A DNA stretch of 64,000 bases from the NCBI GenBank assembly GCA_022709425.1, contig JAKLIW010000005.1:1422-65421 (forward strand). The letters run 5' to 3'. Position 1 is the stretch's first letter. Each line of letters begins with the position of its first letter. Below, piece by piece: positions 1 through 60,363 of this stretch. This stretch comes from a bacterium. GTDB taxonomy: Bacteria > UBP6 > UBA1177 > JAKLFG01. The notes under the pieces were generated by a model that saw only the letters and a list, made by a program, of their open reading frames with translations, was not told where the DNA came from and did no database searches. The position numbers and the translations under genes were made by a program.

Positions 1-567
1 GTTTAGAACGGTAACAATACAGTCGGTATTTATGTAGCCAGAATTTGTCCATATTTTGCCCATGTCGCCGGTCGTTGTTCCTATGACGTATATGTTGTTT
101 TTGTTGTCGATAGCAAACGCGCCCGTGACGATTTCTTGCCTATCGGTGCCCCATTGGTAAGTTTTTACTTTTTTATTATCGGTGATGATCTTCAAATACA
201 TGTCTGCATCGGTTGAATGGTCAAATCTGAAATTGAGAGTACCGCCCACATAAATCCTGTTGTTATGATATTTGGTCCATAACGGTGTGTCTGCGGCGGC
301 GGTGCCCCACTGATAGTATTTAAGAATGCCGTCTTTTGCCCACGGGATATCTTCTTCTTCGCTGATGGTCCACTGAGGCGGGTGTCCAACTGCGGCATCG
401 CTATCGTCAATGAAAATGTCGTTGGTTTCGTTCTCGATGTTATTATCGATTACTTCGTTGTCAGTTGGTTGGCCATCATCTTTTTCTCCGTTAGCCTTTT
501 TAGAGCAAGAACAGGCAAAAATAAAAATAAAAAAGGGCAATAAAAAAACAAAGAAACGAGGCAACAT
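1..567 (-). CDS. Lipoprotein with beta-propeller (SBBP-like) repeat, C-terminally truncated by window edge
   Basis: Own reverse-complement translation runs from ATG at 567 to position 1 without stop: MLPRFFVFLLPFFIFIFACSCS... Signal peptide plus lipobox Cys. Motifs YVGGT and NNIYVIGTTTGDMG resemble SBBP beta-propeller repeats. GGAGG sits 7 nt upstream. Local GC is about 40%, well below the rest of the window. Confidence 0.55.
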   Translation of the reverse strand, partial: MLPRFFVFLLPFFIFIFACSCSKKANGEKDDGQPTDNEVIDNNIENETNDIFIDDSDAAVGHPPQWTISEEEDIPWAKDGILKYYQWGTAAADTPLWTKYHNNRIYVGGTLNFRFDHSTDADMYLKIITDNKKVKTYQWGTDRQEIVTGAFAIDNKNNIYVIGTTTGDMGKIWTNSGYINTDCIVTVLN

Positions 568-679
568 ATTTTCCTCCCATGAAAGAAACATGGCAATGAA
601 GATTTTTATTGATTTTTTTTTTTCAAATCAAGTTTTATTTCATTGTTGCGGGCGCACAATTTCATTTTGGAGGTTTATC

Positions 680-1090
680 ATGAAGAAGTTTTTCCTTGTT
701 TCCTTGTTTTTGTTTGGTTTTGTGACGGCACATGCCGTCGGAACGCCCAACATCGGCGAATGTACAAGAAATTCAGCCTGTACGAACTTTTACTGTTACT
801 GGTCTTCTGTGGGCGATGCCGATTACTATGAATGGAAAGCGGAAGTCAATGGGGTTAGTGGTTGCGGAACGTGGTGTCAAATGGATGAGGATGATACTAC
901 AGGGACGTCATTTTCTACTAACGATGTCTTTTTGGGTGCATATTCCACTTATTGGAAAGGTTCGGTTCGCTCTGTAGCATACATCCCGATACAGGTCTGG
1001 AACCCGATTACCAGAACTTGGTATATCACATGGGTACCGGGAGAATTTAGTTCATGGGACAGCTATCCTGTTAGCGTCGTAAATTGTTAA
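680..1090 (+). CDS. Small secreted Cys-rich protein (hypothetical)
   Basis: In-frame ATG at 680 inside track ORF 410..1090 gives MKKFFLVSLFLFGFVTAHA, a clean signal peptide, with GGAGG 6 nt upstream. The mature part is about 115 aa with 7 Cys and many aromatics. Low-GC region. Confidence 0.5.
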   Translation: MKKFFLVSLFLFGFVTAHAVGTPNIGECTRNSACTNFYCYWSSVGDADYYEWKAEVNGVSGCGTWCQMDEDDTTGTSFSTNDVFLGAYSTYWKGSVRSVAYIPIQVWNPITRTWYITWVPGEFSSWDSYPVSVVNC

Positions 1091-1151
1091 CAATTAAAAG
1101 TTGATATCGTGCGCCCGCATCGATCATATGTGCCAAGACAAGAGATGTCTT

Positions 1152-2027
1152 CTAGAACAGTATCCGCATCGTCAGTCCCGCCGGGAGCGCCGCTCCCGAC
1201 TCACCCGGAATATGCAACGATAGACTTTCCAATGACCGTACCGCGCCGAAGGTCCGTTTAAGTTCACTGCGAATGTCGGCCGCCTTGAGTGCCGAATCGT
1301 GGCAGGAAAAAAGTAAGAACAACGGTCTTTCCGACAGCAGTTCCTGCGCCGTTTTCAGCAGGTCGGGGAGATCGTCGGCCAGTTTCCACCGTTTGCCGTC
1401 GGGGCCGCGGCCGAAGGCGGGCGGGTCGAGGACGATGCCGTCGTAGCGGCGGTTCCGTTTCACCTCGCGCCGCAGGAAGGTCATCACATCGTCGACTATC
1501 CACCGGACCGGCGCGTCGGGACGGCCGTTGAGCGCCGTGTTGCGCCGCGCGGTGGCCACCGCGCTCTTCGCGCCGTCCAAATGGCAGAGGGACAGTGGGT
1601 GCGGCGTGAGGGCGGCGAGCATCGCCAGCGTCGAGCCGCCGGTGTAGCCGAAGGCGTTGATAAGGGTCAGTTCGCGGTCGGCCATCGCGATGACATCACG
1701 TAGCCAGCGCCAGTTGGCGAGCTGTTCGGGGAAGATTCCCACCTGTCCCTGCGGTGAGAGCGCCAGTTCAAACCGGATATCATCCACCGTCACCAGCCAC
1801 GGTTCCTCGATATGGTGGAATCGTTTCCAACTGCCGCCGGTCTCGTCCCGGGTGAAGCGGGCGAAAGCCTCCGGCCACAGATCGGGCGTCAGTTGCGGGC
1901 CGACCGCCTGCGGGGCGGGGCGGTCGAGTATGATGCCGCCGAACGATTCGAGCCTGCGGCCGTCGCCGTGGTCAAGCAGGCGATAACGCTCACGGTCGGG
2001 TGTACTGCTGTTCGGTGTGGTCGTCAT
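1152..2027 (-). CDS. Class I SAM-dependent (rRNA) methyltransferase, RlmI/YccW-like without PUA domain
   Basis: 291 aa. Rossmann SAM-binding region FGYTGGSTLAM and DPPAFGRG catalytic-type motif, typical of the RlmI/RlmK family. Confidence 0.6.
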   Translation of the reverse strand: MTTTPNSSTPDRERYRLLDHGDGRRLESFGGIILDRPAPQAVGPQLTPDLWPEAFARFTRDETGGSWKRFHHIEEPWLVTVDDIRFELALSPQGQVGIFPEQLANWRWLRDVIAMADRELTLINAFGYTGGSTLAMLAALTPHPLSLCHLDGAKSAVATARRNTALNGRPDAPVRWIVDDVMTFLRREVKRNRRYDGIVLDPPAFGRGPDGKRWKLADDLPDLLKTAQELLSERPLFLLFSCHDSALKAADIRSELKRTFGAVRSLESLSLHIPGESGAALPAGLTMRILF

Positions 2028-2095: not shown

Positions 2096-5000
2096 TCAGC
2101 GGCCGCTCCATTCCTTTAGCGCCTTTCCGGTGGCAGAAGCGGCGTCACGCATCAGTTCCCACGGGGTGCCGGTGAACAGGAGTTTCCCACCGTCGGGACC
2201 GCCGCCGGGGCCGAGGTCGATCACCGTGTCGGCCGCCGCGATGAGCGGTTCGCTGTGGGTCGCCATGAGAATGGTCGAACCGTGGCGCGCGATGTCGCTG
2301 AAAAGCGCGCAAAGTTCCGCGATGTCGGCCGGGTGGAGCCCCGCCTCCGGTTCGTCGAGGAGGTAGAGCACCTGCTCTTTCCCCTTGCCGGCGATGAGCC
2401 GCGCCGCGAGGTGAAGCCGCTGGAGTTCGCCCGCCGAACAGCGGTCGGTCGCCTGTCCCATGGTGAGATAGCCGAGCCCCGCCTTCTCGAGTATCGCCAG
2501 CCCGTGCGCCATTACTTTATCGCCGCTGAACAGCGTTGTGCCGTCGCGCACCGTCAGTGTGTGGATGTCGGCGATACTCTTTTCGTGCAGGCGGACGGTC
2601 AGCACCTCGGGGTTGAAGCGCGCGCCGTTGCAGGCGGGACAGGGCGCCTCGACATCGGGAAGGAAGTCGAGCGCCACCGTTTCGCGGCCGCTCCCTTTGC
2701 AGGTCTCGCACCGTCCCGATGCCGTCAGAAAACTGAAATGGCTCTTGGTGAAGCCGCGTTCTTTTGCTTCGGGCGTCGCCGCGAAAAGATTCCGCAGACG
2801 GTCGGCGAGCCCCGTGGCGGTCAGCAGGGTGCTCATGACCGACGCGGTGTGGCGCATCCGTTCGAGCGACAGGATATCGCTGAACCGGTCGAGTCCGGCG
2901 ATGGCGGCGCATTCCTGCGGATGGCCCGCCGCACCGCTCGCGGCGATGACCGCGAACAAAAGCGACGATTTGCCGCTCCCCGACCGGCCGGTCAGCGCGA
3001 CGACCGCCGGGACCGGGATATCGAGCGTCAAACTTTTAAGATTATGAGCGTCTGCTTTTTCGATGTGGATGACCGCCTCCGGTGCATTGCTTTTTCTCTC
3101 CGGCACCGTACCGTGCAGATGATCGCCGGTGAGCGTTACGCCGGGACGGAGCAGTTCGTCGGGCGTTCCCGCGGCGGTGATGCGTCCCCCTTCCGAACCG
3201 GCGCCGGGGCCCAGTTCGACCATCCGGTCGGCCATCCGCATGAGCTGCGGCGCATGATCGACCGTGATGAGGGTGTTCCCGGCGGCGGGGACCTCACGGA
3301 GCAGTTTCCCCAGTTCGGCGCGGTCGGCCGGATGGAGTCCGCGTCCCGGTTCGTCTATCACATAGCAGACGCCGGTGAGGCCGTTGAAGAGTATCGCTGC
3401 GATGCCGAGCCGCCGGTATTCGCCGCCCGAAAGCGACATCGTTTTGCGGTCGGGCGACAGGTAGCCGAGTCCGACGCGGACAAGCGCTTCGAGGCGGGGG
3501 ATGAGGGCGTCGACGATCGTCCGTTCCTCCGGTTTCATGGCTGAAATTCCGCTAAAGAATTTGAGCGCGGCGGCGGCGGGAAGCGCCGAGAGTTGGTCTA
3601 TCGTCGTGCCGAACACCGTGACAGACCGGGCGATGGCGTTGAGTCCGCTCGCGGTGCAGGCGGCGCAGGGGATATCGCTCATCACCATCTCGATCGTCTT
3701 GCCGCGGGTGTTGTCGTGCCGCAGCAGGTACTCCTCCTCGACGAGCGGCAAGAGTCCTTTCCAGACGCTGGTGAACCGATGCGCTCCGTCGCGGGCGCCC
3801 CGCTTGAAATGCCAGTCGACCGCGTAGACCGTGTCGCCGGCGCCGTTCAGTATCAGGTCGCGCGCCGCGTCGGAGAGGGCGTTGTAGGGTTGCGTCAGGT
3901 CGATGCCGTGGACGGCGCACATCGCCTGCAGCATCGCGATGGTCTTGCCGTCGGGTTCGCCGTAGGAGCGGCCGGTCGGCGTTCCGTCGAGCGCTCCGGC
4001 GATGAGCGGCCGGTCGGGATGCGATATCAGTTTAAGGGGATCGGTCTTGCGCAGGAAGCCGAGCCCGCGGCACTCGGGGCAGGCGCCCTCTTCATGGTTC
4101 GGCGAGAACTGCGCCGCGCGCCAACCGGCCCCGGCACTACGGGCGAAGAGGAGCCGGTAGTGATCCTGAATATCGGTCACGGTGCCGACGGTCGAGCGCG
4201 GATGGCCCCGGTCGGTGTCCTGTGCGCCGATCCCGACGGCCGGGAGCAGTCCGCTCCACGAACCGGCCTCCGCGCCGCCCGGCGTATCGAGGCGACTGCG
4301 CAGATAGCTCGGAAAGGTCTCCAGATAACTGTTGCGGCCGATGGCGTAGAGCGTGTCGAAGACGAGCGACGACTTGCCGCTTCCCGATCGGCCGGTCACC
4401 ATCGTCCAGCGGTTCTCGGGGAACGAGACAGTGACCTGCTTGAGATTGTTGGTGGTGACGGCATTAAGCGTGAGCGGCATTTCATGGGGGGCAGACTTCT
4501 CACCGCCGACGAAGGATTCCCCACCGGCGCAGAAGGCCCGAAGTGCAGCGGCGGTGAGACTGTCGGGATGGTTCAGTACCTCGGCGGGCGTGCCGGTCGC
4601 GACGACCTTCCCGCCGTGGTGGCCGCTTCCCGGTCCCATGTCGATAAGATGATCGGCGGCGTGGATGAGCCGCAGATCGTGGGTCACCGCGACGACGGTG
4701 TTGCCGCGCCGCACCAGATCGTTCAGCGCTTTGGCAAGGAGCGCGGTATCGGCCGGATGGAGTCCGACGGTCGGTTCGTCGAAGATGTAGAGGTCGTTGC
4801 CTCCCTCTTTCTTGCCGAGCGCGGCAGCCAGTTTCAGCCGCTGCGCCTCGCCGCCCGAAAGGGTGGTCGCGGGCTGGCCGAGGGTGATATAGCCGAGTCC
4901 GAGCGAACACAAGATATCGAGGAATCGCCCGATGGGACGGTCGTCGGCGAAGAAGAGCAATGCTTCGGCGATGGAGAGATCGAGCACTGCGGCGATGTTC

Positions 5001-6928
5001 CTGCCGCCCAGTTCCACCTCCTGTACCGCCGCGCTGAACCGCTTGCCGTCGCAGGCCTCGCACACCACCTCGGAGCGGCCGAGGAAGTGGAGCCCGAGTT
5101 CGCGCACCCCGGCCCCTTCGCATGCCTCGCAACGCCCTCCCGGCACATTGAACGAGAAGTGACTCGCGGTGAGGCCGCGCTCGACTGCCGTCGGTAGCGC
5201 CGCGAACCGTTTGCGGATATCGTCGAAGAGTTTGGTATAGGTGGCGGGATTGCTGCGCGGATTGCGGCCGATGGGCGACTGGTCGGTGAAGCGGACGGAC
5301 CCGACCGTTCGTTCGGCCGCAGGCATAGTCTCCAACTGTTCGACGAGACATTCCACGAGCGTTGACTTCCCGGCGCCGCTTACCCCGGTCACGACGGTGA
5401 GTCCTTTGTGCAAGAACGCCGCATCGACGCGCTGCAGGTTGTTCTTCGTCGCGCCGCGTACCCACAGATAGTTCGCATTGATCGGTACCGTTGCGTTCGG
5501 CTTAGGAGAGCCCTCTTTTTCCTGCACCAGCGTCCGCGCCGTCGCGCTCTTTGCGTGGTACTCCGGCCGCAGGATGTCGGCGGGCGTTCCGGCGAAGACC
5601 ACCTCGCCGCCCGCATCGCCGGGGCCGGGACCGATGTCGATGAGATGGTCGGCGTGCCGCGCCGCCGCGAGGTTATGGTCGACCGCAATGACGGTGTTCC
5701 CGGTGTCGCGCAGGCTCTTGAGAAGCGTTATCAGCCGCCGGTGATCGGCCGGATGGAGCCCCGCCGACGGCTCGTCGAGGATGTAGAGCATCCCGCGTAT
5801 CCGGTTCTCGAGTTGTGTGGCTAACCGCAGGCGCTGGAGTTCGCCGCCCGAGAGCGTTTCGGCGCCGCGCGCCACCGGCAGGTAGTCGATCCCGAGCGCC
5901 GCGCAGTGCGCCGCCTGCCGTCCGACCGCCGCCGCGATGGAACTGAGCGGTCCGCTTTTCCGTGCCGCCGCGACCTCCGCCACCCACGCCGCGAGTTCGG
6001 CGATGGGGAGCGCAGAGGCGTCGGTTATCGTCCGGCCCGCTATCGTGACGCTCCGGGCGCGGTCGTTCAGCCGCGTGCCGCCGCAGGACTTGCACGGGAC
6101 GCTGCGGACGAAGCGGAGGATATTCTTGTTGCGGTCGCGTTTCAGGATCTCCTCCATCACCGGGAGGATGCCGCGATAGTAACCCTCTTCGCGCGGTTTG
6201 GCCTTGATGCCGGTCCATTTCATCCGGCTTTCGAGCGGGTGTTTGCCGTAGGGTATCAGTATCTTTTCCGAGCCGTAGAGGACGATGTGTTTCTGTTCTT
6301 CGGTGAGGTCGCGCCACGCGATGTCGACCGAGAAACCGTGGGCGCGGCATACCTCGTCGAGGACCGCCATCGTCACCTGCGAATACATGATGTAGCCCGA
6401 CGGGGTGGTGATGGCAAAGGCGCCGTCGCGCAGGGTACGCGCCGGGTCGGCGATGAGTTTATCGAGGTCGAGCGAATCTTCCACCCCGAGCCCGCCGCAG
6501 GCGGGGCAGGCGCCATCGGGTGTATTGAACGAGAAAAGCGAGCGGTTCGGTTTCACTCCCTCCGGTGCAACACCAAAGCGGGCGAACATCAGCCGCAGGA
6601 GGTCATAGAGTCCCGAGAGCGTCCCGACGGTCGAGCGCGGGCTGGTGACGCCGGTGCGCTGGTCGACCGATACGGCGGGGAGAAGCCCCGTCATCTCCTT
6701 CACCTCGGGGCGGTGGACCTTGCGGAGGTACTGGCGGGTGTAGGTCGAGAAGGTCCCCATGAAACGGCGCATGCTCTCGTGGAATATCGTGTCGTAGACG
6801 AGCGACGACTTGCCGCTGCCCGAGACGCCGGTGACGACGGTGAAGGCGTTGTGCGGGATGGTGACATCAATGTGTTTGAGGTTATGTTCCGCGGCGCCGC
6901 GTATCTCGATCGCCTTCCGACCGCTCAT
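2096..6928 (-). CDS. UvrA-like ABC ATPase, tandem-fused double unit (1610 aa, four ABC modules)
   Basis: Four Walker A motifs at residues about 34, 505, 810 and 1275 (GVSGSGKSSL, GVSGAGKSTL, GRSGSGKSSL, GRSGSGKSSL). Four LSGGE-type signatures (LSGGELQRL, LSGGEAQRL, LSGGEYRRL, SAGELQRL). Cys-pair zinc modules (CPAC, CKSC, CEAC, CPEC, CAAC, CETC). Each half is about 800 aa, roughly 140 aa shorter than canonical UvrA. Confidence 0.8.
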   Translation of the reverse strand: MSGRKAIEIRGAAEHNLKHIDVTIPHNAFTVVTGVSGSGKSSLVYDTIFHESMRRFMGTFSTYTRQYLRKVHRPEVKEMTGLLPAVSVDQRTGVTSPRSTVGTLSGLYDLLRLMFARFGVAPEGVKPNRSLFSFNTPDGACPACGGLGVEDSLDLDKLIADPARTLRDGAFAITTPSGYIMYSQVTMAVLDEVCRAHGFSVDIAWRDLTEEQKHIVLYGSEKILIPYGKHPLESRMKWTGIKAKPREEGYYRGILPVMEEILKRDRNKNILRFVRSVPCKSCGGTRLNDRARSVTIAGRTITDASALPIAELAAWVAEVAAARKSGPLSSIAAAVGRQAAHCAALGIDYLPVARGAETLSGGELQRLRLATQLENRIRGMLYILDEPSAGLHPADHRRLITLLKSLRDTGNTVIAVDHNLAAARHADHLIDIGPGPGDAGGEVVFAGTPADILRPEYHAKSATARTLVQEKEGSPKPNATVPINANYLWVRGATKNNLQRVDAAFLHKGLTVVTGVSGAGKSTLVECLVEQLETMPAAERTVGSVRFTDQSPIGRNPRSNPATYTKLFDDIRKRFAALPTAVERGLTASHFSFNVPGGRCEACEGAGVRELGLHFLGRSEVVCEACDGKRFSAAVQEVELGGRNIAAVLDLSIAEALLFFADDRPIGRFLDILCSLGLGYITLGQPATTLSGGEAQRLKLAAALGKKEGGNDLYIFDEPTVGLHPADTALLAKALNDLVRRGNTVVAVTHDLRLIHAADHLIDMGPGSGHHGGKVVATGTPAEVLNHPDSLTAAALRAFCAGGESFVGGEKSAPHEMPLTLNAVTTNNLKQVTVSFPENRWTMVTGRSGSGKSSLVFDTLYAIGRNSYLETFPSYLRSRLDTPGGAEAGSWSGLLPAVGIGAQDTDRGHPRSTVGTVTDIQDHYRLLFARSAGAGWRAAQFSPNHEEGACPECRGLGFLRKTDPLKLISHPDRPLIAGALDGTPTGRSYGEPDGKTIAMLQAMCAVHGIDLTQPYNALSDAARDLILNGAGDTVYAVDWHFKRGARDGAHRFTSVWKGLLPLVEEEYLLRHDNTRGKTIEMVMSDIPCAACTASGLNAIARSVTVFGTTIDQLSALPAAAALKFFSGISAMKPEERTIVDALIPRLEALVRVGLGYLSPDRKTMSLSGGEYRRLGIAAILFNGLTGVCYVIDEPGRGLHPADRAELGKLLREVPAAGNTLITVDHAPQLMRMADRMVELGPGAGSEGGRITAAGTPDELLRPGVTLTGDHLHGTVPERKSNAPEAVIHIEKADAHNLKSLTLDIPVPAVVALTGRSGSGKSSLLFAVIAASGAAGHPQECAAIAGLDRFSDILSLERMRHTASVMSTLLTATGLADRLRNLFAATPEAKERGFTKSHFSFLTASGRCETCKGSGRETVALDFLPDVEAPCPACNGARFNPEVLTVRLHEKSIADIHTLTVRDGTTLFSGDKVMAHGLAILEKAGLGYLTMGQATDRCSAGELQRLHLAARLIAGKGKEQVLYLLDEPEAGLHPADIAELCALFSDIARHGSTILMATHSEPLIAAADTVIDLGPGGGPDGGKLLFTGTPWELMRDAASATGKALKEWSGR

Positions 6929-7138
6929 CGGGTCTCCGTATCACTGCCGCTCGCAGGGTAAAACAACCACCCGAAAAGTCAAAAAAGAGGAGGCTTCTTG
7001 CAGTGTCCATATACTGTTTTTGTCCTTGTCACTTTCTCGAGATCGGATAACCGGCGTTTAAAGTCCGGTATTTAAAGCGGTCGAAGAAGAGTAAGTTCCA
7101 AAAAAATCTTTGAATTTTTCTTGCGTTTTAACCTACAA

Positions 7139-7174
7139 GTGGTATTTTGTGGTATCGAAGTTCTCTCAAGTGGG
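7139..7174 (+). promoter_or_regulatory. Putative MraZ operator: GTGGT-N5-GTGGT direct repeats plus downstream GTGGG
   Basis: GTGGT at 7139-7143 and 7149-7153 with 10-bp periodicity, and GTGGG at 7170-7174, immediately upstream of the mraZ start. MraZ family regulators are known to bind GTGGG-like direct repeats at their own promoter. Confidence 0.35.
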
Positions 7175-21528: not shown

Positions 21529-22355
21529 GAAAAGCGCTCTCGATCATCGTTATGACCGGGCTCATGCTTTTCGTCTGGATGACCGCCGGGGTCTTCACCG
21601 CCTTTTTCGTTCATACCGAACGGTACGCCGGAAAGGTCCGTTCCAGCGACGAATTCGCCGTGACGCCCGAGAAGGTGACGGTCGAGGGGATTGCTCACCT
21701 GACGCGCGATGAGGTGCTGCTACTCGCGGGTTTCGATCGCCGCATGAGCTGGTTCGACGTTGACGAACATCGCGCGGCGCTGTTCATCCGTTCCAACGGC
21801 TGGATAAAGGAATGCGAGGTGCAGACGATATTCCCCGACCGCGTCCGCATCCGCGTCACCGAATATGAACCGGCGATAGTGGTCAATCGCCGCGAAACGG
21901 AAGGAGAGCGCGGCGAAGGGCTCTACAGCATATGGTTCGCCGATCGCGACGGCGTCATCTTCAAAAAAGCGTTCCCGCGCGAGGGGCGTACCGATCTGCC
22001 GCTTTTTTTCATCGAAAATGAGGCGGGCGCGGAAGTGCGGCCTGATCTTATCAAGCAGGCGATCGCCATCGCCGCCGAGTGGCGGCGGCATGCCGACCTC
22101 TGTTCCCTGCGGAGCATCGGGTACGACGCCTTCGACGGTTTTTCGCTCGAATGCGAGTTCCCGAAACGGCGGACCGCCCGTATCTATCTGGGTGATCCGG
22201 GTGTCGGGGACGATATCATCAAGCGGCGCGGCGGCATTTTCCGCGATGCGGCGCTGCGTCTGCGCGATAAACGGCTCTTCGCCGGCGAGTTCCAGTTCGA
22301 TGCGCGCCGTAGCGGCGATGCGCTCATAGCAGGTCAGGTCGTTCACTATAAGTAG
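21525..22355 (+). CDS. ftsQ: Cell division protein FtsQ (POTRA domain)
   Basis: N-terminal TM followed by a POTRA-like segment (VEGIAHLTRDEVLLLAGF). Position between ddl and ftsA. Confidence 0.8.
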   Translation: MRKALSIIVMTGLMLFVWMTAGVFTAFFVHTERYAGKVRSSDEFAVTPEKVTVEGIAHLTRDEVLLLAGFDRRMSWFDVDEHRAALFIRSNGWIKECEVQTIFPDRVRIRVTEYEPAIVVNRRETEGERGEGLYSIWFADRDGVIFKKAFPREGRTDLPLFFIENEAGAEVRPDLIKQAIAIAAEWRRHADLCSLRSIGYDAFDGFSLECEFPKRRTARIYLGDPGVGDDIIKRRGGIFRDAALRLRDKRLFAGEFQFDARRSGDALIAGQVVHYK

Positions 22356-22364
22356 AGGGATATA

Positions 22365-23591
22365 ATGTCGAAGAACGAAAATGTCATTACCGCGCTGGAT
22401 GTGGGAACGGGAAAGGTCACCACGCTGGTCGCCACTGTCTCTCCCGACGGTCGCGTGCAGTTCGTCGGGAAAGGGGTCGCGAAGAACCCCGACGGCATGA
22501 TAAACGGGAATGTCGTCAATATGGAAGCGACGACCCGCGCGATCAACGAGTCGGTCACCGAGGCCGACAAGATCTGCGATGTGCACATCAAGTCGGTCAT
22601 CCTTGGTTTGTCGGGCGAACACATTAGTTCGATCAACAGCCATGGGGTGGTGACCGTGCGTGGCCGCGAGGTTGCGCAGACCGACATGGACCGCGTGGTG
22701 GAGCAGGCGAAGAACATCAGCCTGCCGGCCGACCGGCGCATCGTCGGGGTCGAAGTGGGCGAATATGTTGTCGACGATCAGAGCGGCATCAAGAATCCGC
22801 GCGGTATGGCGGGCAAACGGCTCGAGGTCAAGACCCACGTGGTCACCGCGAGCATCGCGATGATACAGAATCTCGTCAAAAGCGTGACCGATGCCGGTCT
22901 GCAGGTGGAGGATATCGTGGTGGCCGGTCTTGCGTCGAGCGACTCGGTCCTGCAGGAGGATGAGAAACAGCTGGGGGTCGCGGTGGTGGACATCGGCGAC
23001 GGCACCGCCGACATCATCGTCTATAAGCAGGGACGTCTTGCCTATACGGCAGTCGTGCCGATGGGGGGCCGCTATATCACGCGTGACATATCGATCGCGC
23101 TGCGGATGCCGCCCGCCGAGGCGGAACGGATAAAATGCCGCTACGGGTGCGCGGTGCCCGCGTCGGTCAGTCCCGAGGAAGAGATCGAGGTCTGCTGTAT
23201 CGGCGACGAGGAGAAGAAGGTCATTAAATCGCATATCCTTGCCCGCGTCATCGAACCGCGGGTCGAGGAGATCATGGTGAATGTGCGCAAAAAGATACAC
23301 GAGGACATCAAGGAAAGCTTCATCTCCTCCGGTATCGTACTCACGGGCGGTACGGCGAATCTCCGGTATATCAAGGGACTCGCCGAAGAGGTCATCGGAC
23401 TGCCGGTGCGTATCGGCCGGCCGGTCATCACCGACGACAATATGGGGTTCGCGGAGCTTCTGCGCGATCCCGCCTTCGCCACGGCGGTCGGGATGGTGCG
23501 CTACCATCTCCGCAACGGCCGCGTTTCGAAGGAATCGGGCGACGGGCTGTTCGCCCGGATCGGGAAATGGATAGAGAAATTTTTTCAATAG
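22365..23591 (+). CDS. ftsA: Cell division protein FtsA (actin-like ATPase)
   Basis: ALDVGTGKVTTLVA phosphate-1 motif. DIGDGTADIIVY and VLTGGTANL motifs. Confidence 0.95.
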   Translation: MSKNENVITALDVGTGKVTTLVATVSPDGRVQFVGKGVAKNPDGMINGNVVNMEATTRAINESVTEADKICDVHIKSVILGLSGEHISSINSHGVVTVRGREVAQTDMDRVVEQAKNISLPADRRIVGVEVGEYVVDDQSGIKNPRGMAGKRLEVKTHVVTASIAMIQNLVKSVTDAGLQVEDIVVAGLASSDSVLQEDEKQLGVAVVDIGDGTADIIVYKQGRLAYTAVVPMGGRYITRDISIALRMPPAEAERIKCRYGCAVPASVSPEEEIEVCCIGDEEKKVIKSHILARVIEPRVEEIMVNVRKKIHEDIKESFISSGIVLTGGTANLRYIKGLAEEVIGLPVRIGRPVITDDNMGFAELLRDPAFATAVGMVRYHLRNGRVSKESGDGLFARIGKWIEKFFQ

Positions 23592-23603
23592 AGGGAGGAC
23601 GGC

Positions 23604-25064
23604 ATGAACGCGAGAAATGGGAACCCGCTCGTGAGGATCGGCGTCATGGGGGTCGGCGGCGCCGGCGGCAACGCCGTCAACCGGATCGTGCAGGAGCGCG
23701 ATGTCTGCAATGAGGGCGGCGCCAACAGCGTCTTCAACGACATCGTGATACTCGCGGCCAACACCGATACGCAGGATCTCGAGAAGTCGAAGGCCGAAAG
23801 CCGGATACAGCTCGGGGCCAACCGCACCTGCGGTTGGGGCGCCGGTGCGCACCCCGAGGTGGGCCGCGAATCGGCCGAGGAGAGCCGCGTGGAGATCGCC
23901 AACAACATCGACGGTCTCGATATGCTCTTCATCACCGCCGGCATGGGCGGCGGCACCGGCACCGGCGCATCGCCGGTCGTCGCGGAGGTGGCCAAGCAGG
24001 CGGGGATACTGACGGTCGGCGTGGTGACCACCCCCTTCTGTTTCGAGGGGCGCAAGAAGATGCGGATCGCGCAGGAGGGGCTCGAACAGCTCCGGGCGCA
24101 GGTCGATACGCTGGTGGTCATCCCCAACGAGAAGCTCGTCGCCATCGCCGAAGAGCGGGCGAGCTATACCGAGATGTTCAAGCGCTCCGACGATGTGCTT
24201 ACCAACGCGGTGCGGTCGCTGTCGGTACTTATCGCCAACAAGTCGCTGGTCAATGTCGATTTCGCCGATGTCCGCACCACCATGGTCGGCATGGGTACCG
24301 CGATGATCGGGATCGGCGCGGCGGCGGGTGAAAGCGCTGCGGTGAACGCCGTCAAGGAGGCGCTCAACAATCCGCTCCTGTCGGACGTTTCGATAAAGGG
24401 GGCGCGGCGCGCCCTTCTGCACCTCGGCGGCATGAGCATACCGATCCGCGAACTCGACGAGGCGGCGAAGTATATATCGGAACAGCTCCATGAGGATGCC
24501 GATTTCATCTGGGGCGTTTCGGTCGACGAAACGGCCGATAAGGTGTATGCGCTGGTCGTCGCGGAGGCGTCGCAGACCGCCCGTCCGCCGATGCAGAATT
24601 TTACCGCGGCGGCCACCGGACTGCGCGGCGTCACGAAGGATTCGCAGATATCCATGTTCGATATGACCGCGACCTCACCCGCCGCCAAGGCCGAAACGGT
24701 CAAACAGAACACACCGGTCCATGCCGAACCGCAATTAGTCCCCGAGCCGGTCCGGACCGCCGCACAGGCGGGATCGGTGTCGCCGGTGGCGGTGCTGAGG
24801 GATTCGACCAACAAGGTCGATTTCTCCTCCGAGAAGGTGCTGTTCCAGCTTCCCGAGGATATTTCCACCGATCCCAACGATCCCAATGTCCCGGCCATCT
24901 ACCGCCAGAAGAATCAGCAAAAGAATGCCGACGCGGCCCCATCGGCCGTCGCCGCTCCGGTGCCGCCCGTCCATAAAGAGCCGGCGGCAAAACGGATCGA
25001 TGAACGGCAGACGACGCTCCTGACGGTGAATGCCGCCGTCAAGAACGGCCATAATCAGCAGTGA
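23604..25064 (+). CDS. ftsZ: Cell division GTPase FtsZ with long Pro/Ala-rich C-terminal linker
   Basis: GGGTGTGASPVVA tubulin signature, T7 loop region. About 170-aa disordered linker, then conserved C-terminal peptide. Confidence 0.97.
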   Translation: MNARNGNPLVRIGVMGVGGAGGNAVNRIVQERDVCNEGGANSVFNDIVILAANTDTQDLEKSKAESRIQLGANRTCGWGAGAHPEVGRESAEESRVEIANNIDGLDMLFITAGMGGGTGTGASPVVAEVAKQAGILTVGVVTTPFCFEGRKKMRIAQEGLEQLRAQVDTLVVIPNEKLVAIAEERASYTEMFKRSDDVLTNAVRSLSVLIANKSLVNVDFADVRTTMVGMGTAMIGIGAAAGESAAVNAVKEALNNPLLSDVSIKGARRALLHLGGMSIPIRELDEAAKYISEQLHEDADFIWGVSVDETADKVYALVVAEASQTARPPMQNFTAAATGLRGVTKDSQISMFDMTATSPAAKAETVKQNTPVHAEPQLVPEPVRTAAQAGSVSPVAVLRDSTNKVDFSSEKVLFQLPEDISTDPNDPNVPAIYRQKNQQKNADAAPSAVAAPVPPVHKEPAAKRIDERQTTLLTVNAAVKNGHNQQ

Positions 25065-26437
25065 GGCGCGCAGGGGTAGCCTACCTATTCCCTGCGCAGC
25101 GGCGCGTCGCCCTCTCCAATCTCGCCCCGCACTATTTTTTCGGCGCCTTCCGTGAAAGCCACGGACTCGACCTATTGTTCGACGGCGAGGAGCGATCGCT
25201 TCTCGACCGGCGGCGTCCCGGCGAATTCGCCGTCATCTTCGCGGGGCTTTCCTACGAGCCGTCGTATCTGACCTTCGTCCGCTACCTCGTGACCCACGGC
25301 ATACCGGTACTCAAGAGCGACCGGCCCGCCGGAAAATTCCCGCTCATCATCGCGGGGGGCGTCGCGCCGTCGCTGAACCCCCAGCCGCTTCTCGACATCT
25401 GCGACGCGGTCCTCTGCGGCGAGGCGGAGCCGATGCACGACGATCTCACGGCGCTGCTCGACGATCCCGCGACGACGCTTGAACTCATCGCCGAACTTCA
25501 GTACGCCGCGAAGCCCGGCAGGAAGCCCCATATCATACAGGCGGCGGCCGGGTCCTTCGCCGTCCACAGCCACCCGGACCTCGTGGCCGAAGGGAACGAA
25601 TTCGGTGGTCGCACGGTGCTGGAACTTGACCGCGGCTGTGTCGGCAAGTGTTTCTTCTGTGCGGCGCGGCACCTCTACGGCGAAAGCCGCGAGGCCGACC
25701 GCCACTTGATAACCCACGCGGCGGAAGAGGCCTTCCGGCGCGGCGAGGATATCGCTCTGCTCGGCACCGGACTTGAAAGCGTCTCCTACTTCGACGACCT
25801 GCTTGACCGCGCGATAGCGGCGGGACGCACTGTGTCGCTCTCGTCGGTCCGCATCGCCGGGTTCACGCCGGATCGGGCATCGCGGCTCGCGGCGGCCGGG
25901 GTCAAAACGGTGACGCTCGCCCCCGAAAGCATGGTCGGGGCGACCCGGTCACGCATCGGCAAACCGCTCGCCGACGACGAACTCTTCGCCGCATTCGAGA
26001 TAGCGAAAGAGCATCACTTCAAGGTGAAACTCTACCTCATGGCGGGACTCCCCGGCGGCGATAGCGCGGCGGAGGCGCAGGCGCTCATCGCATTCTTCGC
26101 CGAACTCAAAAAACGGAAACTCACCGTGCCGCTCTCGCTCTCGGTATCGCCCTTCTGTCCCAAACCGGGGACGCCGTTCCACGGCAAGGCGCTGATGCCG
26201 AAAAAGGAGTATGAACGCCTCCGCGCGGCGGTGATGCGCGGCCTCGACAAGCTGATGCCGCAGATGCCGGTCGAATGGTTCTCGTGGCGCGAGTCGCTCC
26301 TGCAGACCGCCTTCGACCGGATGGACGCCGCCGACGGCGCCGCGTTCCTCGCCGCCTACGCCGACACCGCCAACCTCCGCACCGCCGAAAAACGCTCCGG
26401 CATCCGACTGGAAGACACGGCCGGTCTTGTCGGCTGA
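25061..26437 (+). CDS. B12-binding-domain radical SAM protein
   Basis: CVGKCFFC (CxxxCxxC) radical SAM cluster motif at about residue 195. It is preceded by a Rossmann-like segment (PLIIAGGVAPSLNP...DAVLCGEAE) typical of class B radical SAM enzymes. GTG at 25061 overlaps the ftsZ stop. Exact start uncertain. Confidence 0.6.
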   Translation: MRRAGVAYLFPAQRRVALSNLAPHYFFGAFRESHGLDLLFDGEERSLLDRRRPGEFAVIFAGLSYEPSYLTFVRYLVTHGIPVLKSDRPAGKFPLIIAGGVAPSLNPQPLLDICDAVLCGEAEPMHDDLTALLDDPATTLELIAELQYAAKPGRKPHIIQAAAGSFAVHSHPDLVAEGNEFGGRTVLELDRGCVGKCFFCAARHLYGESREADRHLITHAAEEAFRRGEDIALLGTGLESVSYFDDLLDRAIAAGRTVSLSSVRIAGFTPDRASRLAAAGVKTVTLAPESMVGATRSRIGKPLADDELFAAFEIAKEHHFKVKLYLMAGLPGGDSAAEAQALIAFFAELKKRKLTVPLSLSVSPFCPKPGTPFHGKALMPKKEYERLRAAVMRGLDKLMPQMPVEWFSWRESLLQTAFDRMDAADGAAFLAAYADTANLRTAEKRSGIRLEDTAGLVG

Positions 26438-26552
26438 AAAACCCTGTAAATCCGTGTTGCTATCAAAAATTACTGTCTTTTCCCGGCCGGTTATGATAAA
26501 AACCGGTCTGCGGCGGTACTATAGAGGCGTGTTTTTTGACAGGGAGGCAGAT

Positions 26553-29500
26553 ATGAAGGCAAGACATTTCACTTATGTTATCATGGTATTGCTCGCGGCG
26601 ATATTCTTCGCGTCCTGCGAGAACAACAGCAACGATCCCGGGAATGTCGTCCCTGACGATACCGGTGCTATCGAGGTGACCGACGAAGGGGAATTCGTGA
26701 CCGCCGGCAACGGCAAGAACAGCAACAATTACGGCGAGGATGCCGCCGCCACCGACGAAGCGGGGGCCCCCAGCAACGAGGACGACAGGGGGGGCGATGC
26801 CTCCCGCGAGATCGTCGAGGCCGATATCTATAAGGTAGAGGGAAGCATCCTTTATGTGCTCAACCAATACCGCGGACTGATCGCGATCGATGTGACCGAC
26901 CCGACGGCGCTCAAGATCGTCGGCCGCACCTCGTTCAAGGGTATGCCTTTCGAGATGTACGTTCAGGAAGGACGCGCCTATGTCATGGTGACCGGCCTGC
27001 GTTATAACCCCGACGAAGAGGGCGGCGAGGATGGCTACTACGATGCGTCGCGGACCTTTAGCGAACTGATCGTGGTCGATGTCGCCGACCCGGCGAAGCA
27101 GAAGATACTCGGCCGCCACATGATGGAAGGGACCATCATCGATTCGCGGCAGGTGGGCGATGTCCTCTATGTCGCGGCGAGCGAGAACGAATATTATTGG
27201 TATTACTGCGACCATTCGGAGATGCGTGGGAACAATCAGATCACCCTCATGTCGCTCAATATCGCCGACCCGGCCGACATCTATCAGGCAGATGTGGAGC
27301 ATCTTGAGGGTACCGGCTACGCGCTCTATGTGACCGATCACAGCATCTATGTCGCCGAGACCAACTATTCCTACTGGGAACAGGGCTACTACACCGACGG
27401 CGTCCCGGTGCACTATTTCGATATCAGCGATCCCGACGGCACGATCGTCAAGAAGAGCGAATTCAAGACGCGCGGATATATCGGCGATCGCTGGAAGATG
27501 CACGAGAAGGATGGCATCTTCTTCGCGGTGACCACCACCAGCCAGTGGAGCAACGGTGAGACCACCGTCGAGGCGTTCGACGTGACCGATCCGGCCGCCC
27601 CGGCGAAGATATCCGACTTCACCTTCATGCAGGACCAGCAACTCTACGGCGCGCGGTTCGACGGGAACCGGCTCTATGCCGTCACCTATTTCCGGCAGGA
27701 CCCGCTCCATGTCATCGACATCACCGATCCGGCCAAGATGAGCGAACTCGGTCAGCTGGCGGTCCCCGGCTGGTCGACCCATATCGAGATCCGCGGCACC
27801 AAACTGCTCACCGTCGGCATCGACGATCAGGACGGCTGGGCAGCCAAGGTGTCGATGTATGATGTGACCGACCCGGCCAATCCGACTGAAATGACCACCG
27901 TATCGCTGGGCGGCAGTGAGAACGGCTATTCGTGGAGCGAAGCGACGAGCGACTGGAAGGCGTTCAAGATCTATGACGCCATCGGCCTCATTCTCGTTCC
28001 GACCACCGAATGGAACTACGAATCCTACCGCGATGTCAATAAGCTTCACCTTATCGATTTCGATCTGGAGAAGGGGCTCACCAAGCGCGGTTCGGTCGAG
28101 AGTCCCGGTTATGTGCGGCGCGGCGTGGTGGTGGGCGACTACATCGCCAGCGTCGGCGATACCACCGTCATGATGGTTGAATACAGCGACCGCGACAAAC
28201 CGGAGATCCTTTCCAGTCTGCCGGTCGCCTATCCGGTCGAGAATCTCTTCGCCTGCGCCGGAAAACTCTGCGGCACCAAGGGGAACTCGTGGTACGACAG
28301 CGACATTCGCTTGGCTACCTACGATGCGGCCAAGGATTATCCGGTGAACTGGACTTCCGACCGCATCCGCGGCCAGTATATCTATTCAATGCAGAACACC
28401 GCCAAGGCGGTCACGATGTTCAGCTACGACTACGGCTACCGCACCCTTGAGGACGGTTCGCAGCAGTATCAGGAGGGGGTCTACGCGACCCGCTTCAACC
28501 TCGCGGCGGGCAAGAACCCCGCCTTCGCCGGATCGGTCGCGCTCGAGATGCCCCCGCAGGAAGAGACCGACGGCGACTACTGGTACTGGTACGGCCGCGC
28601 CTTCGCGGTGGCCGAGAGCAAGGCGGCCGGGATGATGAGCTCCCGCTACGACTACTACTGCCTTGAGGATGGCATGCCGATGGAGTGCGCCAGCGACGGG
28701 GCCTACGACAACTATTACTATTACAACAAATCGAAGCTGGCGGTCTACGATCTCACCGACATGAGCGGGGATTCGGTCGCGCCGGTCATCATCGACAAGG
28801 AGTTCCGCGCCGTTTCCTACGACAATAACATTATCGCCCGCGGCGACAAACTGTGGCTCACCGACTGCAAACTGCACGCGTGGGATAGCGAAGGACGTGA
28901 ACTGCTCATCTGCTATGCGCAGGCGGTCGATGTGTCCGATCCCGCCAAACCGGTGCTTGCCGAGAAGTACAATATCCCGGGCGAACTGGTCGGTATGAGC
29001 GACGACGGCACCATCTTCTACACCCTGATGCGCACGTGGATCAAGACCGACGAGAACGGCAAACGCGACGGTTACTACTACAACAGCAGCTACCTGTACC
29101 ACATGAACATCCTCAAGAAGAGCGCCGACGGCAAAAAGCTCCAGATCGTCAAGGTGATCCCGTATCACGAAGAGTACACCTACACCGAGAACACCTCGGA
29201 GTACCTCTGGAGCAGTTACATTATTCAGGATAAAACCCTCTTCTTCAACACCATGAAGCAGGTCTATCACTGGGAGGAGACGCAGTGTTCCTACTACTCA
29301 TCGACCATGGAGCGCACCTCGACGGTGGTCGCGTATAACGGCGTGACCGGCGCCAAATTGATGGAAGATGTGATAGCGGACGGCGTGGGTATCGCCAATG
29401 TCGACGGCGGCGGCATACTCGTCCTGCGTCAACCCAACGACGGGTACTACTACTATTACTACGGGTCGGCCTCCAACGAGTACACCTATGTCGCGCAGGA

Positions 29501-29651
29501 CGGCACGATGACCGAGATCACCCTGCCCGAAGCGTCGTACTACGCCGACGATTACTACTACTACAACGGCAACAAGGCGGTGAAGGATGGCGACAACCTG
29601 ATCATCGCGCGCGGGTGGGAAGGGCTCACCACCGTTTCCCTCAAACCGTAA
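26553..29651 (+). CDS. Large lipoprotein with LVIVD-type beta-propeller repeats and Tyr-rich clusters
   Basis: Start set to the ATG at 26553 (AGGGAGG upstream), inside track ORF 26427..29651, giving a lipoprotein signal (LLAAIFFASC). Recurrent (V/I)DV(T/S)DP(A/T)xP motifs (IDVTDPTALK, VDVADPAKQK, FDVTDPAAPAK, IDITDPAKM, YDVTDPANPT, VDVSDPAKPV) match the LVIVD repeat consensus. Oligo-Tyr runs (YYYYYYG, DDYYYYNGNK, DNYYYYNKSK). Confidence 0.7.
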   Translation: MKARHFTYVIMVLLAAIFFASCENNSNDPGNVVPDDTGAIEVTDEGEFVTAGNGKNSNNYGEDAAATDEAGAPSNEDDRGGDASREIVEADIYKVEGSILYVLNQYRGLIAIDVTDPTALKIVGRTSFKGMPFEMYVQEGRAYVMVTGLRYNPDEEGGEDGYYDASRTFSELIVVDVADPAKQKILGRHMMEGTIIDSRQVGDVLYVAASENEYYWYYCDHSEMRGNNQITLMSLNIADPADIYQADVEHLEGTGYALYVTDHSIYVAETNYSYWEQGYYTDGVPVHYFDISDPDGTIVKKSEFKTRGYIGDRWKMHEKDGIFFAVTTTSQWSNGETTVEAFDVTDPAAPAKISDFTFMQDQQLYGARFDGNRLYAVTYFRQDPLHVIDITDPAKMSELGQLAVPGWSTHIEIRGTKLLTVGIDDQDGWAAKVSMYDVTDPANPTEMTTVSLGGSENGYSWSEATSDWKAFKIYDAIGLILVPTTEWNYESYRDVNKLHLIDFDLEKGLTKRGSVESPGYVRRGVVVGDYIASVGDTTVMMVEYSDRDKPEILSSLPVAYPVENLFACAGKLCGTKGNSWYDSDIRLATYDAAKDYPVNWTSDRIRGQYIYSMQNTAKAVTMFSYDYGYRTLEDGSQQYQEGVYATRFNLAAGKNPAFAGSVALEMPPQEETDGDYWYWYGRAFAVAESKAAGMMSSRYDYYCLEDGMPMECASDGAYDNYYYYNKSKLAVYDLTDMSGDSVAPVIIDKEFRAVSYDNNIIARGDKLWLTDCKLHAWDSEGRELLICYAQAVDVSDPAKPVLAEKYNIPGELVGMSDDGTIFYTLMRTWIKTDENGKRDGYYYNSSYLYHMNILKKSADGKKLQIVKVIPYHEEYTYTENTSEYLWSSYIIQDKTLFFNTMKQVYHWEETQCSYYSSTMERTSTVVAYNGVTGAKLMEDVIADGVGIANVDGGGILVLRQPNDGYYYYYYGSASNEYTYVAQDGTMTEITLPEASYYADDYYYYNGNKAVKDGDNLIIARGWEGLTTVSLKP

Positions 29652-34785: not shown

Positions 34786-34938
34786 GATATCCTCCCTCAC
34801 GGTGTGTACACAACTGAAAACAGGATGCATTATATCCTCGCGTGCGCGGGGAGTCAACCTAAATCTCCGGCCTGTTCCCTTGCTTTTTCCGGTCGTTCTG
34901 TTATAACTGCGGCGTGCGAAGCATCTAAGGAGTCCATC

Positions 34939-38513: not shown

Positions 38514-38954
38514 GTGAGAAAAATAGTGATTGGCGTAATCCTATGTTCATTGATGTCCGTGTTTTTGGCGACCTCCTGCGTTGGTCTTTATGCGGGCGCT
38601 ATGTCGGAAAGCACTTCCTATGAGGGAGCGTACTCTTGGAAAAGCCCCGGTAAAATGAGTGACGAGGAGACCTTCGACTTGATAATGAAAAGTGCAGAAG
38701 AACAGGGCTATCATTTGGCGAAAGATTCGAGGGACGAGGATAATACCATCCATTTTACCTCGTCAAGTTCAGGTGCGAATACAACTTTCACCGGAAGAAG
38801 TCAAAGAGTCCTGTTGTGGTTCAAAGTGAACCACGGCAAGATACGGATTAAGACGATGCTGACGGGAAACTACAGCTTCGGTTCGAAGGAAAATTCCGAT
38901 GAGCTGATTGAACAATTCAAGAGAAAAATGAAAGAAATTAGGAAAAAAGATTAA
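38514..38954 (+). CDS. Hypothetical lipoprotein in AT-rich islet
   Basis: GTG start, signal plus lipobox (LATSC). GC is about 40% against about 65% for the flanks. Confidence 0.5.
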   Translation: MRKIVIGVILCSLMSVFLATSCVGLYAGAMSESTSYEGAYSWKSPGKMSDEETFDLIMKSAEEQGYHLAKDSRDEDNTIHFTSSSSGANTTFTGRSQRVLLWFKVNHGKIRIKTMLTGNYSFGSKENSDELIEQFKRKMKEIRKKD

Positions 38955-59100: not shown

Positions 59101-59115
59101 GGGGGAGAATAGACC

Positions 59116-60354: not shown

Positions 60355-60363
60355 GAGTGGATC

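Follow-up and report, generated by a model that had tools for sequence, protein, structure and literature searches.

UvrA and UvrA2 work as dimers whose subunits are joined head to head and which have four ATP sites and a single DNA groove (PMC5128194). Class II UvrA proteins, including Deinococcus radiodurans UvrA2 (DrUvrA2, PDB 2VF7), Ecm16 (PDB 7SH1) and DrrC, are chains of ~800–850 aa that homodimerise. Each chain contains two ATP-binding cassette (ABC) modules, an insertion domain, and zinc modules 2 and 3, while both the UvrB-binding domain and zinc module 1 are missing. Protection against echinomycin by Ecm16 does not depend on UvrA, B, C or D; it requires ATP hydrolysis and the insertion domain, and the protein prefers drug-laden DNA (PMC9328131, PMC10192343). 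Here we analysed a gene in a 64,000-nt stretch of bacterial DNA (contig JAKLIW010000005.1, positions 1,422 to 65,421; hereafter the window), whose single 1610-aa product carries four ABC modules in two diverged UvrA-like units, each with the same domain set as class II UvrA. Given that class II UvrA is one two-module chain that homodimerises, the protein is not class II in the strict sense, and we refer to it and its collinear full-length homologues of 1600–1700 aa, found among others in metagenome-assembled genomes (MAGs) of Deltaproteobacteria and Spirochaetales, as II+II doubles.

Two UvrA units also share one chain in the Chlamydia-type long UvrA (NF001885, a model of 1809 positions), against which the window protein scored 937 bits versus a cut-off of 3054. 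By contrast with the Chlamydia-type protein and with other doubles that have UvrB-binding domains, which keep at least one such domain, the window protein has none.

A single reading frame encodes two UvrA units of class II type

The open reading frame (ORF) starts with ATG and runs through 1610 codons with zero internal stops; its coordinates had been given exactly in the initial annotation, and the correction needed is that it lies on the minus strand. The full-length protein scored 1410 bits against the NCBIfam model TIGR00630 (uvra), in four stretches, and 1398.5 bits against NF001503, and scores of ~1400 bits in four stretches from UvrA equivalog models exclude chance resemblance. A sequencing or assembly frameshift joining two adjacent genes had been envisaged, and the check ruled this artefact out, because the identical protein (P0001) was found on five contigs of public assemblies, being present in NCBI, JGI and ENA, and the same single ORF occurs in relatives at 92, 90, 81 and 78% identity. 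The single-ORF architecture also recurs in more than 100 relatives at 44–50% identity, across phyla. For an internal start at Met815, inspection revealed no convincing ribosome-binding site, and Met815 is not conserved among homologues. The gene, its two units and their zinc modules are arranged as follows.

2096..6928, minus strand: whole gene, 1610-aa double UvrA-like protein, stop codon included (intact ORF and TIGR00630 match)
6934..6937, minus strand: GGAG Shine-Dalgarno-like motif, 5 nt 5′ of the ATG (sequence inspection)
4538..6928, minus strand: N-terminal UvrA unit (N unit), residues 1–797, conserved, class II-like (alignment to E. coli UvrA and DrUvrA2)
4475..4537, minus strand: inter-unit linker, residues ~798–818, variable (junction comparison in 120 homologues)
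2096..4474, minus strand: C-terminal UvrA unit (C unit), residues 819–1610, more divergent, class II-like (alignment, model and dN/dS)
6083..6508, minus strand: zinc module 2 of the N unit (CPAC 141 / CKSC 279), enclosing the insertion (DNA-binding) domain (CxxC pairs; PF17755, 51.8 bits)
3656..4081, minus strand: zinc module 2 of the C unit (CPEC 950 / CAAC 1088), enclosing the insertion domain (CxxC pairs; PF17755, 43.6 bits)
5051..5131, minus strand: zinc module 3 of the N unit (CEAC 600 / CEAC 623), a C-terminal zinc finger (CxxC pairs and alignment)
2630..2710, minus strand: zinc module 3 of the C unit (CETC 1407 / CPAC 1430), a C-terminal zinc finger (CxxC pairs and alignment)

As initially proposed, the ORF holds two complete UvrA-like halves, half 1 (residues 1–812) and half 2 (813–1610) sharing 36.7% identity over 809 aa (E = 6e-134). 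Both halves aligned end to end with E. coli UvrA, at 43% (N) and 36% (C) identity, each with a single clean gap opposite E. coli residues ~118–267, which constitute the UvrB-binding domain and zinc module 1. In addition, PF17760 (UvrA_inter) had no match in residues 97–281 or 906–1090 even at E ≤ 10, whereas the E. coli UvrA control scored 132 bits. The loss of the UvrB-binding domain from each half, which the initial annotation had read from motif spacing, is thus borne out by the alignment gap and the absence of PF17760, and because neither half has this domain, a role in UvrB-dependent nucleotide excision repair (NER) is, as had also been stated, unlikely. The insertion domains, suggested to be missing as well, are present, with PF17755 (UvrA_DNA-bind) kept in both halves at 51.8 bits (N) and 43.6 bits (C), versus 135 bits for the E. 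coli control. The Pfam pattern of the DrUvrA2 control, PF17755 without PF17760, was the same as that of both halves.

A sequence search of the PDB matched DrUvrA2 (2vf7) in one stretch, residues 7–798, and Ecm16 (7sh1) also collinearly, and G. stearothermophilus UvrA matched in two stretches with its residues ~137–282 skipped. Half 1 alone passed the TIGR00630 cut-off narrowly (779.5 versus 729.8) and failed that of NF001503 (795.6 versus 1147), and half 2 alone fell under both (637.8 and 610, respectively), so that the full-length protein passes the NF001503 cut-off only because the scores of its two units add up. The UvrA three-dimensional fold was examined for the C unit, the AlphaFold2 model of which had a predicted local distance difference test (pLDDT) score of 88.7 and a predicted template modelling (pTM) score of 0.82; in Foldseek it gave TM scores of 0.77–0.85 to UvrA chains, 0.79 to DrUvrA2 and, relative to the target, 0.89 to Ecm16. 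Class I UvrA (E. coli; G. stearothermophilus, PDB 2R6F) has the same fold and motifs, with TM scores of 0.82–0.84 for the C-half model, but differs in the segment equivalent to E. coli ~118–267, which both halves lack, and neither half alone reaches the NF001503 cut-off.

The junction between the units (reference residues 790–822; 32 residues in the window protein) was usually 29–45 residues long and rich in P, A, S and G in the 120 homologues. In the 90% relative P0002, the linker (residues ~800–840) carries a 10-residue insertion made up of a twofold tandem repeat of GLPAIASG, indicating that the linker tolerates length change.

The C unit is degenerate at both of its ATP sites

A motif scan located Walker A motifs (G..G.GKS) at residues 34, 515, 846 and 1314 and Walker B motifs (DEP) at residues ~385, 717, 1192 and 1525. 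The four Walker A motifs initially counted all stand, but only three of the four signature motifs counted with them are canonical LSGGE, the fourth reading CSAGE.

6806..6829, minus strand: Walker A of module 1, GVSGSGKS, residues 34–41 (motif scan; 99–100% conserved in the family)
5363..5386, minus strand: Walker A of module 2, GVSGAGKS, residues 515–522 (motif scan and family conservation)
4370..4393, minus strand: Walker A of module 3, GRSGSGKS, residues 846–853 (motif scan and family conservation)
2966..2989, minus strand: Walker A of module 4, GRSGSGKS, residues 1314–1321 (motif scan and family conservation)
5840..5854, minus strand: ABC signature LSGGE of module 1, residues 359–363 (motif scan)
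4847..4861, minus strand: ABC signature LSGGE of module 2, residues 690–694 (motif scan)
3419..3433, minus strand: ABC signature LSGGE of module 3, residues 1166–1170 (motif scan)
2426..2440, minus strand: degenerate signature CSAGE of module 4, residues 1497–1501 (motif scan)
2813..2875, minus strand: degenerate Q-loop and following stretch of module 4, residues 1352–1372, LERMRHTASVMSTLLTATG in place of DQSPIGRTPRSNPATYTG (alignment)

The Walker A lysine, the Walker B Asp-Glu pair and the H-loop histidine were 97–100% conserved in all four modules of the family alignment, and the four modules of the window protein contain all ABC motifs save the degenerate fourth signature and fourth Q-loop. 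P0002 and P0003, at 90% identity, also have CSAGE; the signature is CSTGE in the 78% relative, and LSGGE stands at this position in 96% of the family. The CSAGE/CSTGE signature marks this lineage off within the family, as does the presence of D or T, where E is usual, ahead of each H-loop histidine.

Across the II+II family, 154 columns were at least 90% conserved in the N-halves versus 95 in the C-halves, and mean identity among themselves was 49% for N-halves and 42% for C-halves. The conservation loss in the C-halves was concentrated in part of the insertion domain and in the segments equivalent to E. coli 688–706 and 731–741. These two segments cover the Q-loop of ATP-binding domain II and the stretch 'PIGRTPRSNPATYTG...FSFN', the latter assigned to its domain by boundaries that we take to be those of Pakotiprapha et al. 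2008. Over E. coli 688–706, identity to E. coli was 0.34 for C-halves, compared with 0.84 for N-halves and 0.86 for class II singles. The Q-loop glutamine of module I was kept in 91% of N-halves and 55% of C-halves and that of module II in 77% and 38%, respectively, and 4/4 singles had both; in the window protein the C-half Q-loop reads 'LERMRH...', with no glutamine. The degenerate Q-loop and signature of the C unit thus set it apart from the four class II singles examined, in which both degeneracies are absent. By alignment, the degeneracy of the second Q-loop and the adjoining stretch in the C-half is family-wide, despite purifying selection.

In UvrA, the proximal ATP site is built from ATP-binding domain I with signature domain II, and the distal site from ATP-binding domain II with signature domain I (PMC6486640). 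By this geometry, the CSAGE of module 4 completes the proximal ATP site of the C unit, and each ATP site of the C unit therefore departs from the canonical form in one element; in the N unit, neither site does. As it is through signature domain II that UvrA touches DNA most extensively (PMC12796330), the DNA contacts of the C unit may differ as well.

II+II doubles form a large family that points to one old fusion

The initial annotation had described fused double UvrA paralogues as rare, a view that does not survive comparison with a collection of 5.8 billion proteins, in which the best 120 clusters at 90% identity were all long UvrAs, as were the best 150 clusters in a search at 50% identity. 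The best 120 matches were all 1610–1726 aa long, 119 of them at 97–100% query coverage, and, leaving aside the two 90% relatives, were 44–50% identical to the window protein; where given, their source names were 'excinuclease ABC subunit UvrA' and MAGs of Acidobacteriota, Aminicenantes, Bacteroidales and Myxococcales. The best 150 representatives at 50% identity, retrieved by a filter-free HMMER search with a junction-spanning 1200-residue query, were likewise all long, at 1032–2343 aa. Some proteins among P0121–P0269 had 5–6 Walker A motifs and exceeded 2300 aa. When usable proteins with four Walker A motifs were typed by an E. coli-like UvrB-binding domain in each half (class I-like, I, if present; class II-like, II, if absent), the sampled doubles comprised 69 II+II, 35 I+I, 11 I+II and 16 II+I, giving at least 69 II+II proteins. 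A pattern scan of GTDB species genomes also found full-length doubles in MAGs of Bacteroidales, Bacteroidota, Deltaproteobacteria and Spirochaetales, and a truncated match in a Chitinophagales MAG.

Taking these observations together, the gene is a member of a large, already annotated family of II+II double UvrAs. Within it, the lineage of the window protein branches off on its own, and among the matches listed no protein outside this divergent branch is more than 50% identical; the nearest species representative (90%) is labelled 'uncultured Spirochaetales bacterium'. In 2008, Goosen and Moolenaar (DNA Repair) reportedly termed such doubles 'class III' UvrA, a duplicated class II, and in the open-access literature searched we found no description of 'class III', fused or tandem UvrA.

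To place the halves, a neighbour-joining tree was built over 723 well-occupied alignment columns from 262 half-proteins, E. coli UvrA as the one class I single, and four class II singles carried on plasmids (D. radiodurans, S. anulatus, Phaeobacter and Pantoea). The II+II N-halves formed a clade in 100/100 bootstraps and the II+II C-halves in 92/100, with the N-half of the window protein inside the N clade and its C-half inside the C clade; because N-halves and C-halves form two separate clades, the tree speaks for one old fusion, after which the family diversified vertically. The two clades were sisters in only 7/100 bootstraps. The class II singles grouped with the N-halves in 92/100 bootstraps and with the C-halves in 0/100 (F ≥ 0.95), in a tree with only four class II singles and one class I single. 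The C-half may go back to a tandem duplication or to another paralogue, a point on which neighbour-joining with few singles is weak evidence. Three proteins within the II+II clades (P0129, P0143 and P0151) have a UvrB-binding-domain match in the N-half. Single class II-like UvrAs collinear with half 1, at ~40% identity, were found in 923 plasmid records.

Both halves are under similar purifying selection, with dN/dS values of 0.17 (N) and 0.12 (C) against the 90% relative and 0.26 for both against the 78% relative; the linker, by comparison, had a dN/dS of 0.43–0.48 versus 0.12–0.26 in the halves. The GC content of the gene was considered as a sign of horizontal transfer and set aside as not diagnostic, since at 0.658 it exceeds the ~0.60 of the window but other genes reach 0.66.

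Genomic neighbourhood

Two features flank the gene.

1152..2027, minus strand: co-directional downstream gene for a 291-aa S-adenosylmethionine-dependent methyltransferase (PF10672, 42 bits), probably not a functional partner
6929..7146, no strand assigned: divergent intergenic region shared with mraZ, with the palindrome ACCGGCGTTTAAAGTCCGGT at 7050–7069 (sequence inspection)

The UvrA-like gene lies upstream of, and co-directional with, the methyltransferase gene, as first described, but the naming of the latter as an rRNA methyltransferase did not hold, its scores being ~40 bits versus RlmK/RlmI cut-offs of 466–712. The two genes are 68 nt apart. In this gap, at window positions 2085–2057 on the minus strand, stands a promoter-like site, TTGACC-17-TATACT (10/12 matches), and given this site the methyltransferase may have its own transcription. 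As an operon partner, the methyltransferase was considered and rejected: its place next to the gene is confined to the 100% and 90% relatives, being lost in the 78% relative and in distant homologues, and it has a promoter-like site of its own. In the 90% relative it accompanies the gene while all other flanks differ.

On the other side, the gene is divergent from the dcw cluster, in agreement with the initial annotation, with mraZ, rsmH, ftsI, murE and further genes of the cluster lying upstream in the opposite direction. The palindrome ACCGGCGTTTAAAGTCCGGT in the shared intergenic region is a candidate operator for MraZ or another regulator; the same region (window 7050–7077) can also be read as a direct repeat, CCGG(C/T)(G/A)TTTAAAG, present twice at 14-nt spacing. 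Read by eye, without a formal search, the upstream region held no convincing LexA-type box. Within the window there was no second uvrA, no uvrB and no uvrC, and scanning the window for Rfam families and for tRNAs gave no matches. Distant homologues have unrelated housekeeping-gene neighbours.

At window positions 1–1100 and past the window start (L002:16338-20506), a low-GC segment (~0.40–0.42 versus 0.60) carries ORFs without family match, and past this segment, outside the window, lie a Transposase_mut gene, an AbiEii toxin gene and a gene for a 208-aa unknown protein. The low-GC segment has the appearance of a small islet, mobile or defensive, that borders on the pair of UvrA-like and methyltransferase genes. 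More low-GC ORFs, possibly foreign inserts, are located at window positions 57442–61095 (GC 0.39–0.52), where ORF 57442–59100 had no Pfam match, and at 38514–38954 (0.44). Elsewhere in the window are genes for a 1074-aa beta-propeller/LVIVD protein (26427–29651, plus strand), a 1166-aa protein with a weak disintegrin-like match (32611–36111, minus strand) and a 923-aa protein with no Pfam match (21720–24491, minus strand).

In two Acidobacteria-like loci (L004:5366-7865 and L006:6465-7948), the double UvrA gene lies downstream of genes for a Crp-family regulator and a ScdA/hemerythrin (iron-centre repair) protein; the ScdA/hemerythrin gene is immediately upstream in L006, and an oppositely oriented NlpC/P60 gene intervenes in L004. 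In the 90% relative (L003:7471-7911), a rubrerythrin-like gene is immediately upstream. These Crp, ScdA and rubrerythrin neighbours might hint at a link to oxidative or nitrosative stress, though the pattern is not conserved more widely.

A proposed covalent pseudo-dimer and its alternatives

We regard the double class II architecture as near certain, and the intramolecular dimer and the physiological role as short of that. By analogy with characterised UvrAs, the two units of the fused protein probably form an asymmetric, covalently linked pseudo-dimer, which would sense duplex DNA that is distorted or carries a ligand, independently of UvrB. Because all characterised UvrAs act as head-to-head dimers, the single chain would fold back on itself as a pseudo-dimer, so that ATP-modulated dimerisation would no longer be needed. 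The N unit has canonical motifs throughout, and the C unit would still bind ATP, though with another kind of coupling to DNA, as is the case in ABC proteins that have a single degenerate site. As it has no dock for UvrB, the protein could not load UvrB; it would act in the manner of the class II proteins Ecm16 and DrrC, binding duplex DNA and recognising distorted or ligand-bound DNA with its insertion domains, and ATP hydrolysis would serve to reshape the DNA or to free the ligand, with no need of UvrBC. Its physiological role would be to help an uncultured bacterium, probably related to Spirochaetota, to tolerate toxins that bind DNA, or to assist in the handling of lesions.

Heterodimeric ABC proteins with one degenerate ATP site are unrelated and provide an analogy only. 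They share with the present case the covalent fusion of subunits of a symmetric oligomer, after which the copies diverge, as does another unrelated analogue, the single-stranded DNA-binding protein of Deinococcus-Thermus, which carries two oligonucleotide/oligosaccharide-binding folds per chain, so that a dimer replaces a tetramer (PMC5128194).

Several points weigh against this pseudo-dimer model. We found no experiment on a double class II UvrA in the literature, the roles of class II singles outside antibiotic producers are themselves unclear, and the intramolecular pseudo-dimer is something we infer by analogy. In addition, genomic context is silent on the substrate, with no conserved neighbour across 26 loci beyond synteny within one lineage, and a search for biosynthetic genes found none across the 64-kb window and none flanking seven loci (this protein and six homologues), which leaves no hint of a substrate. 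A more far-reaching version, in which II+II doubles are obligately asymmetric surveillance ATPases whose N unit reads and grips DNA and whose C unit, having lost the canonical second Q-loop and the conserved segment behind it (E. coli 688–706), serves as a regulatory element or latch, providing a UvrB-independent protection distinct from both NER and self-resistance and widespread in Acidobacteriota, Bacteroidota, Spirochaetota and relatives, is unlikely.

It is improbable that the protein is the working NER damage sensor of the organism, a long UvrA that replaces canonical UvrA in the way of the 1800-aa Chlamydia-type protein. The full-length protein does pass the TIGR00630 and NF001503 cut-offs, its relatives are named 'excinuclease ABC subunit UvrA', and doubles with a UvrB-binding domain in one or both halves exist. 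However, both halves are without PF17760 and zinc module 1, the equivalog cut-offs are reached only by summing two units, the NF001885 score is 937 versus 3054, and the class II protein Ecm16 does not complement a uvrA deletion.

We give equally little credence to a self-resistance gene of a producer of DNA-intercalating natural products, comparable to DrrC, Ecm16 and MtrX. Class II UvrA-like genes do serve this function in actinomycete biosynthetic clusters (PMC10413001, PMC9328131), but no polyketide, non-ribosomal-peptide or other biosynthetic genes occur in the 64-kb window or in the flanks of the seven loci, and the neighbours are housekeeping genes (the dcw cluster, NADH dehydrogenase, EF-G and others), none of them conserved across the 26 loci. 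The gene thus differs from those of Ecm16 and DrrC in having no antibiotic-cluster context.

Very little probability remains for a C unit that is a decaying duplicate, leaving only the N unit functional, or for an ORF that is an artefactual fusion of two genes. The greater divergence of the C-half (42% versus 49% identity; 95 versus 154 conserved columns) and its degenerate Q-loop and signature would suit decay, but its dN/dS (0.12 and 0.26) is no higher than that of the N-half (0.17 and 0.26), the Walker A, Walker B and H-loop residues are 97–100% conserved in the four modules, and the C-half is confidently modelled as a full UvrA fold; against an artefact stands the conservation of the single-ORF architecture across phyla.

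Finally, a methylation-linked (MADS-like) defence module formed with the adjacent methyltransferase beside the mobile or defence islet is effectively refuted: the protein matches PADLOC mad3 at 418 bits, the methyltransferase matches mad2 at 44 bits, and a transposase and an AbiEii toxin lie a few kb past the methyltransferase, but the E. coli UvrA control gave 342 bits on mad3 versus 237 and 191 for the halves, no MAD6 or MAD7 was detected although MAD6–8 are required to call the system (10.1101/2023.03.30.534895), the sole mad8 signal (167 bits) is generic, E. coli UvrA giving 124 bits, and the methyltransferase linkage is confined to relatives at least 90% identical. The mad3 model (PADLOC PDLC04135) is essentially a UvrA-type ABC module, on which DrUvrA2 scores 278 bits, and because housekeeping UvrA matches it, lone mad3 matches on UvrA-like genes are false positives for defence.

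Implications

For the window itself these results are of little consequence, as the gene is assembled correctly and is one of many in a family to which annotation pipelines already give the name UvrA. That name misleads, given that a protein with no dock for UvrB cannot serve as excinuclease subunit A. More interesting than the single gene is the family, probably a natural covalent UvrA dimer with diverged halves, and its conserved asymmetry is the only feature that specialists might follow up. Such a natural fusion would allow the four ATP sites and two insertion domains to be mutated singly, which is impossible in a symmetric homodimer, and could thereby help to explain how ATP use is coupled to the recognition of distorted DNA in UvrA-type sensors, as well as the role of class II UvrAs outside antibiotic producers.

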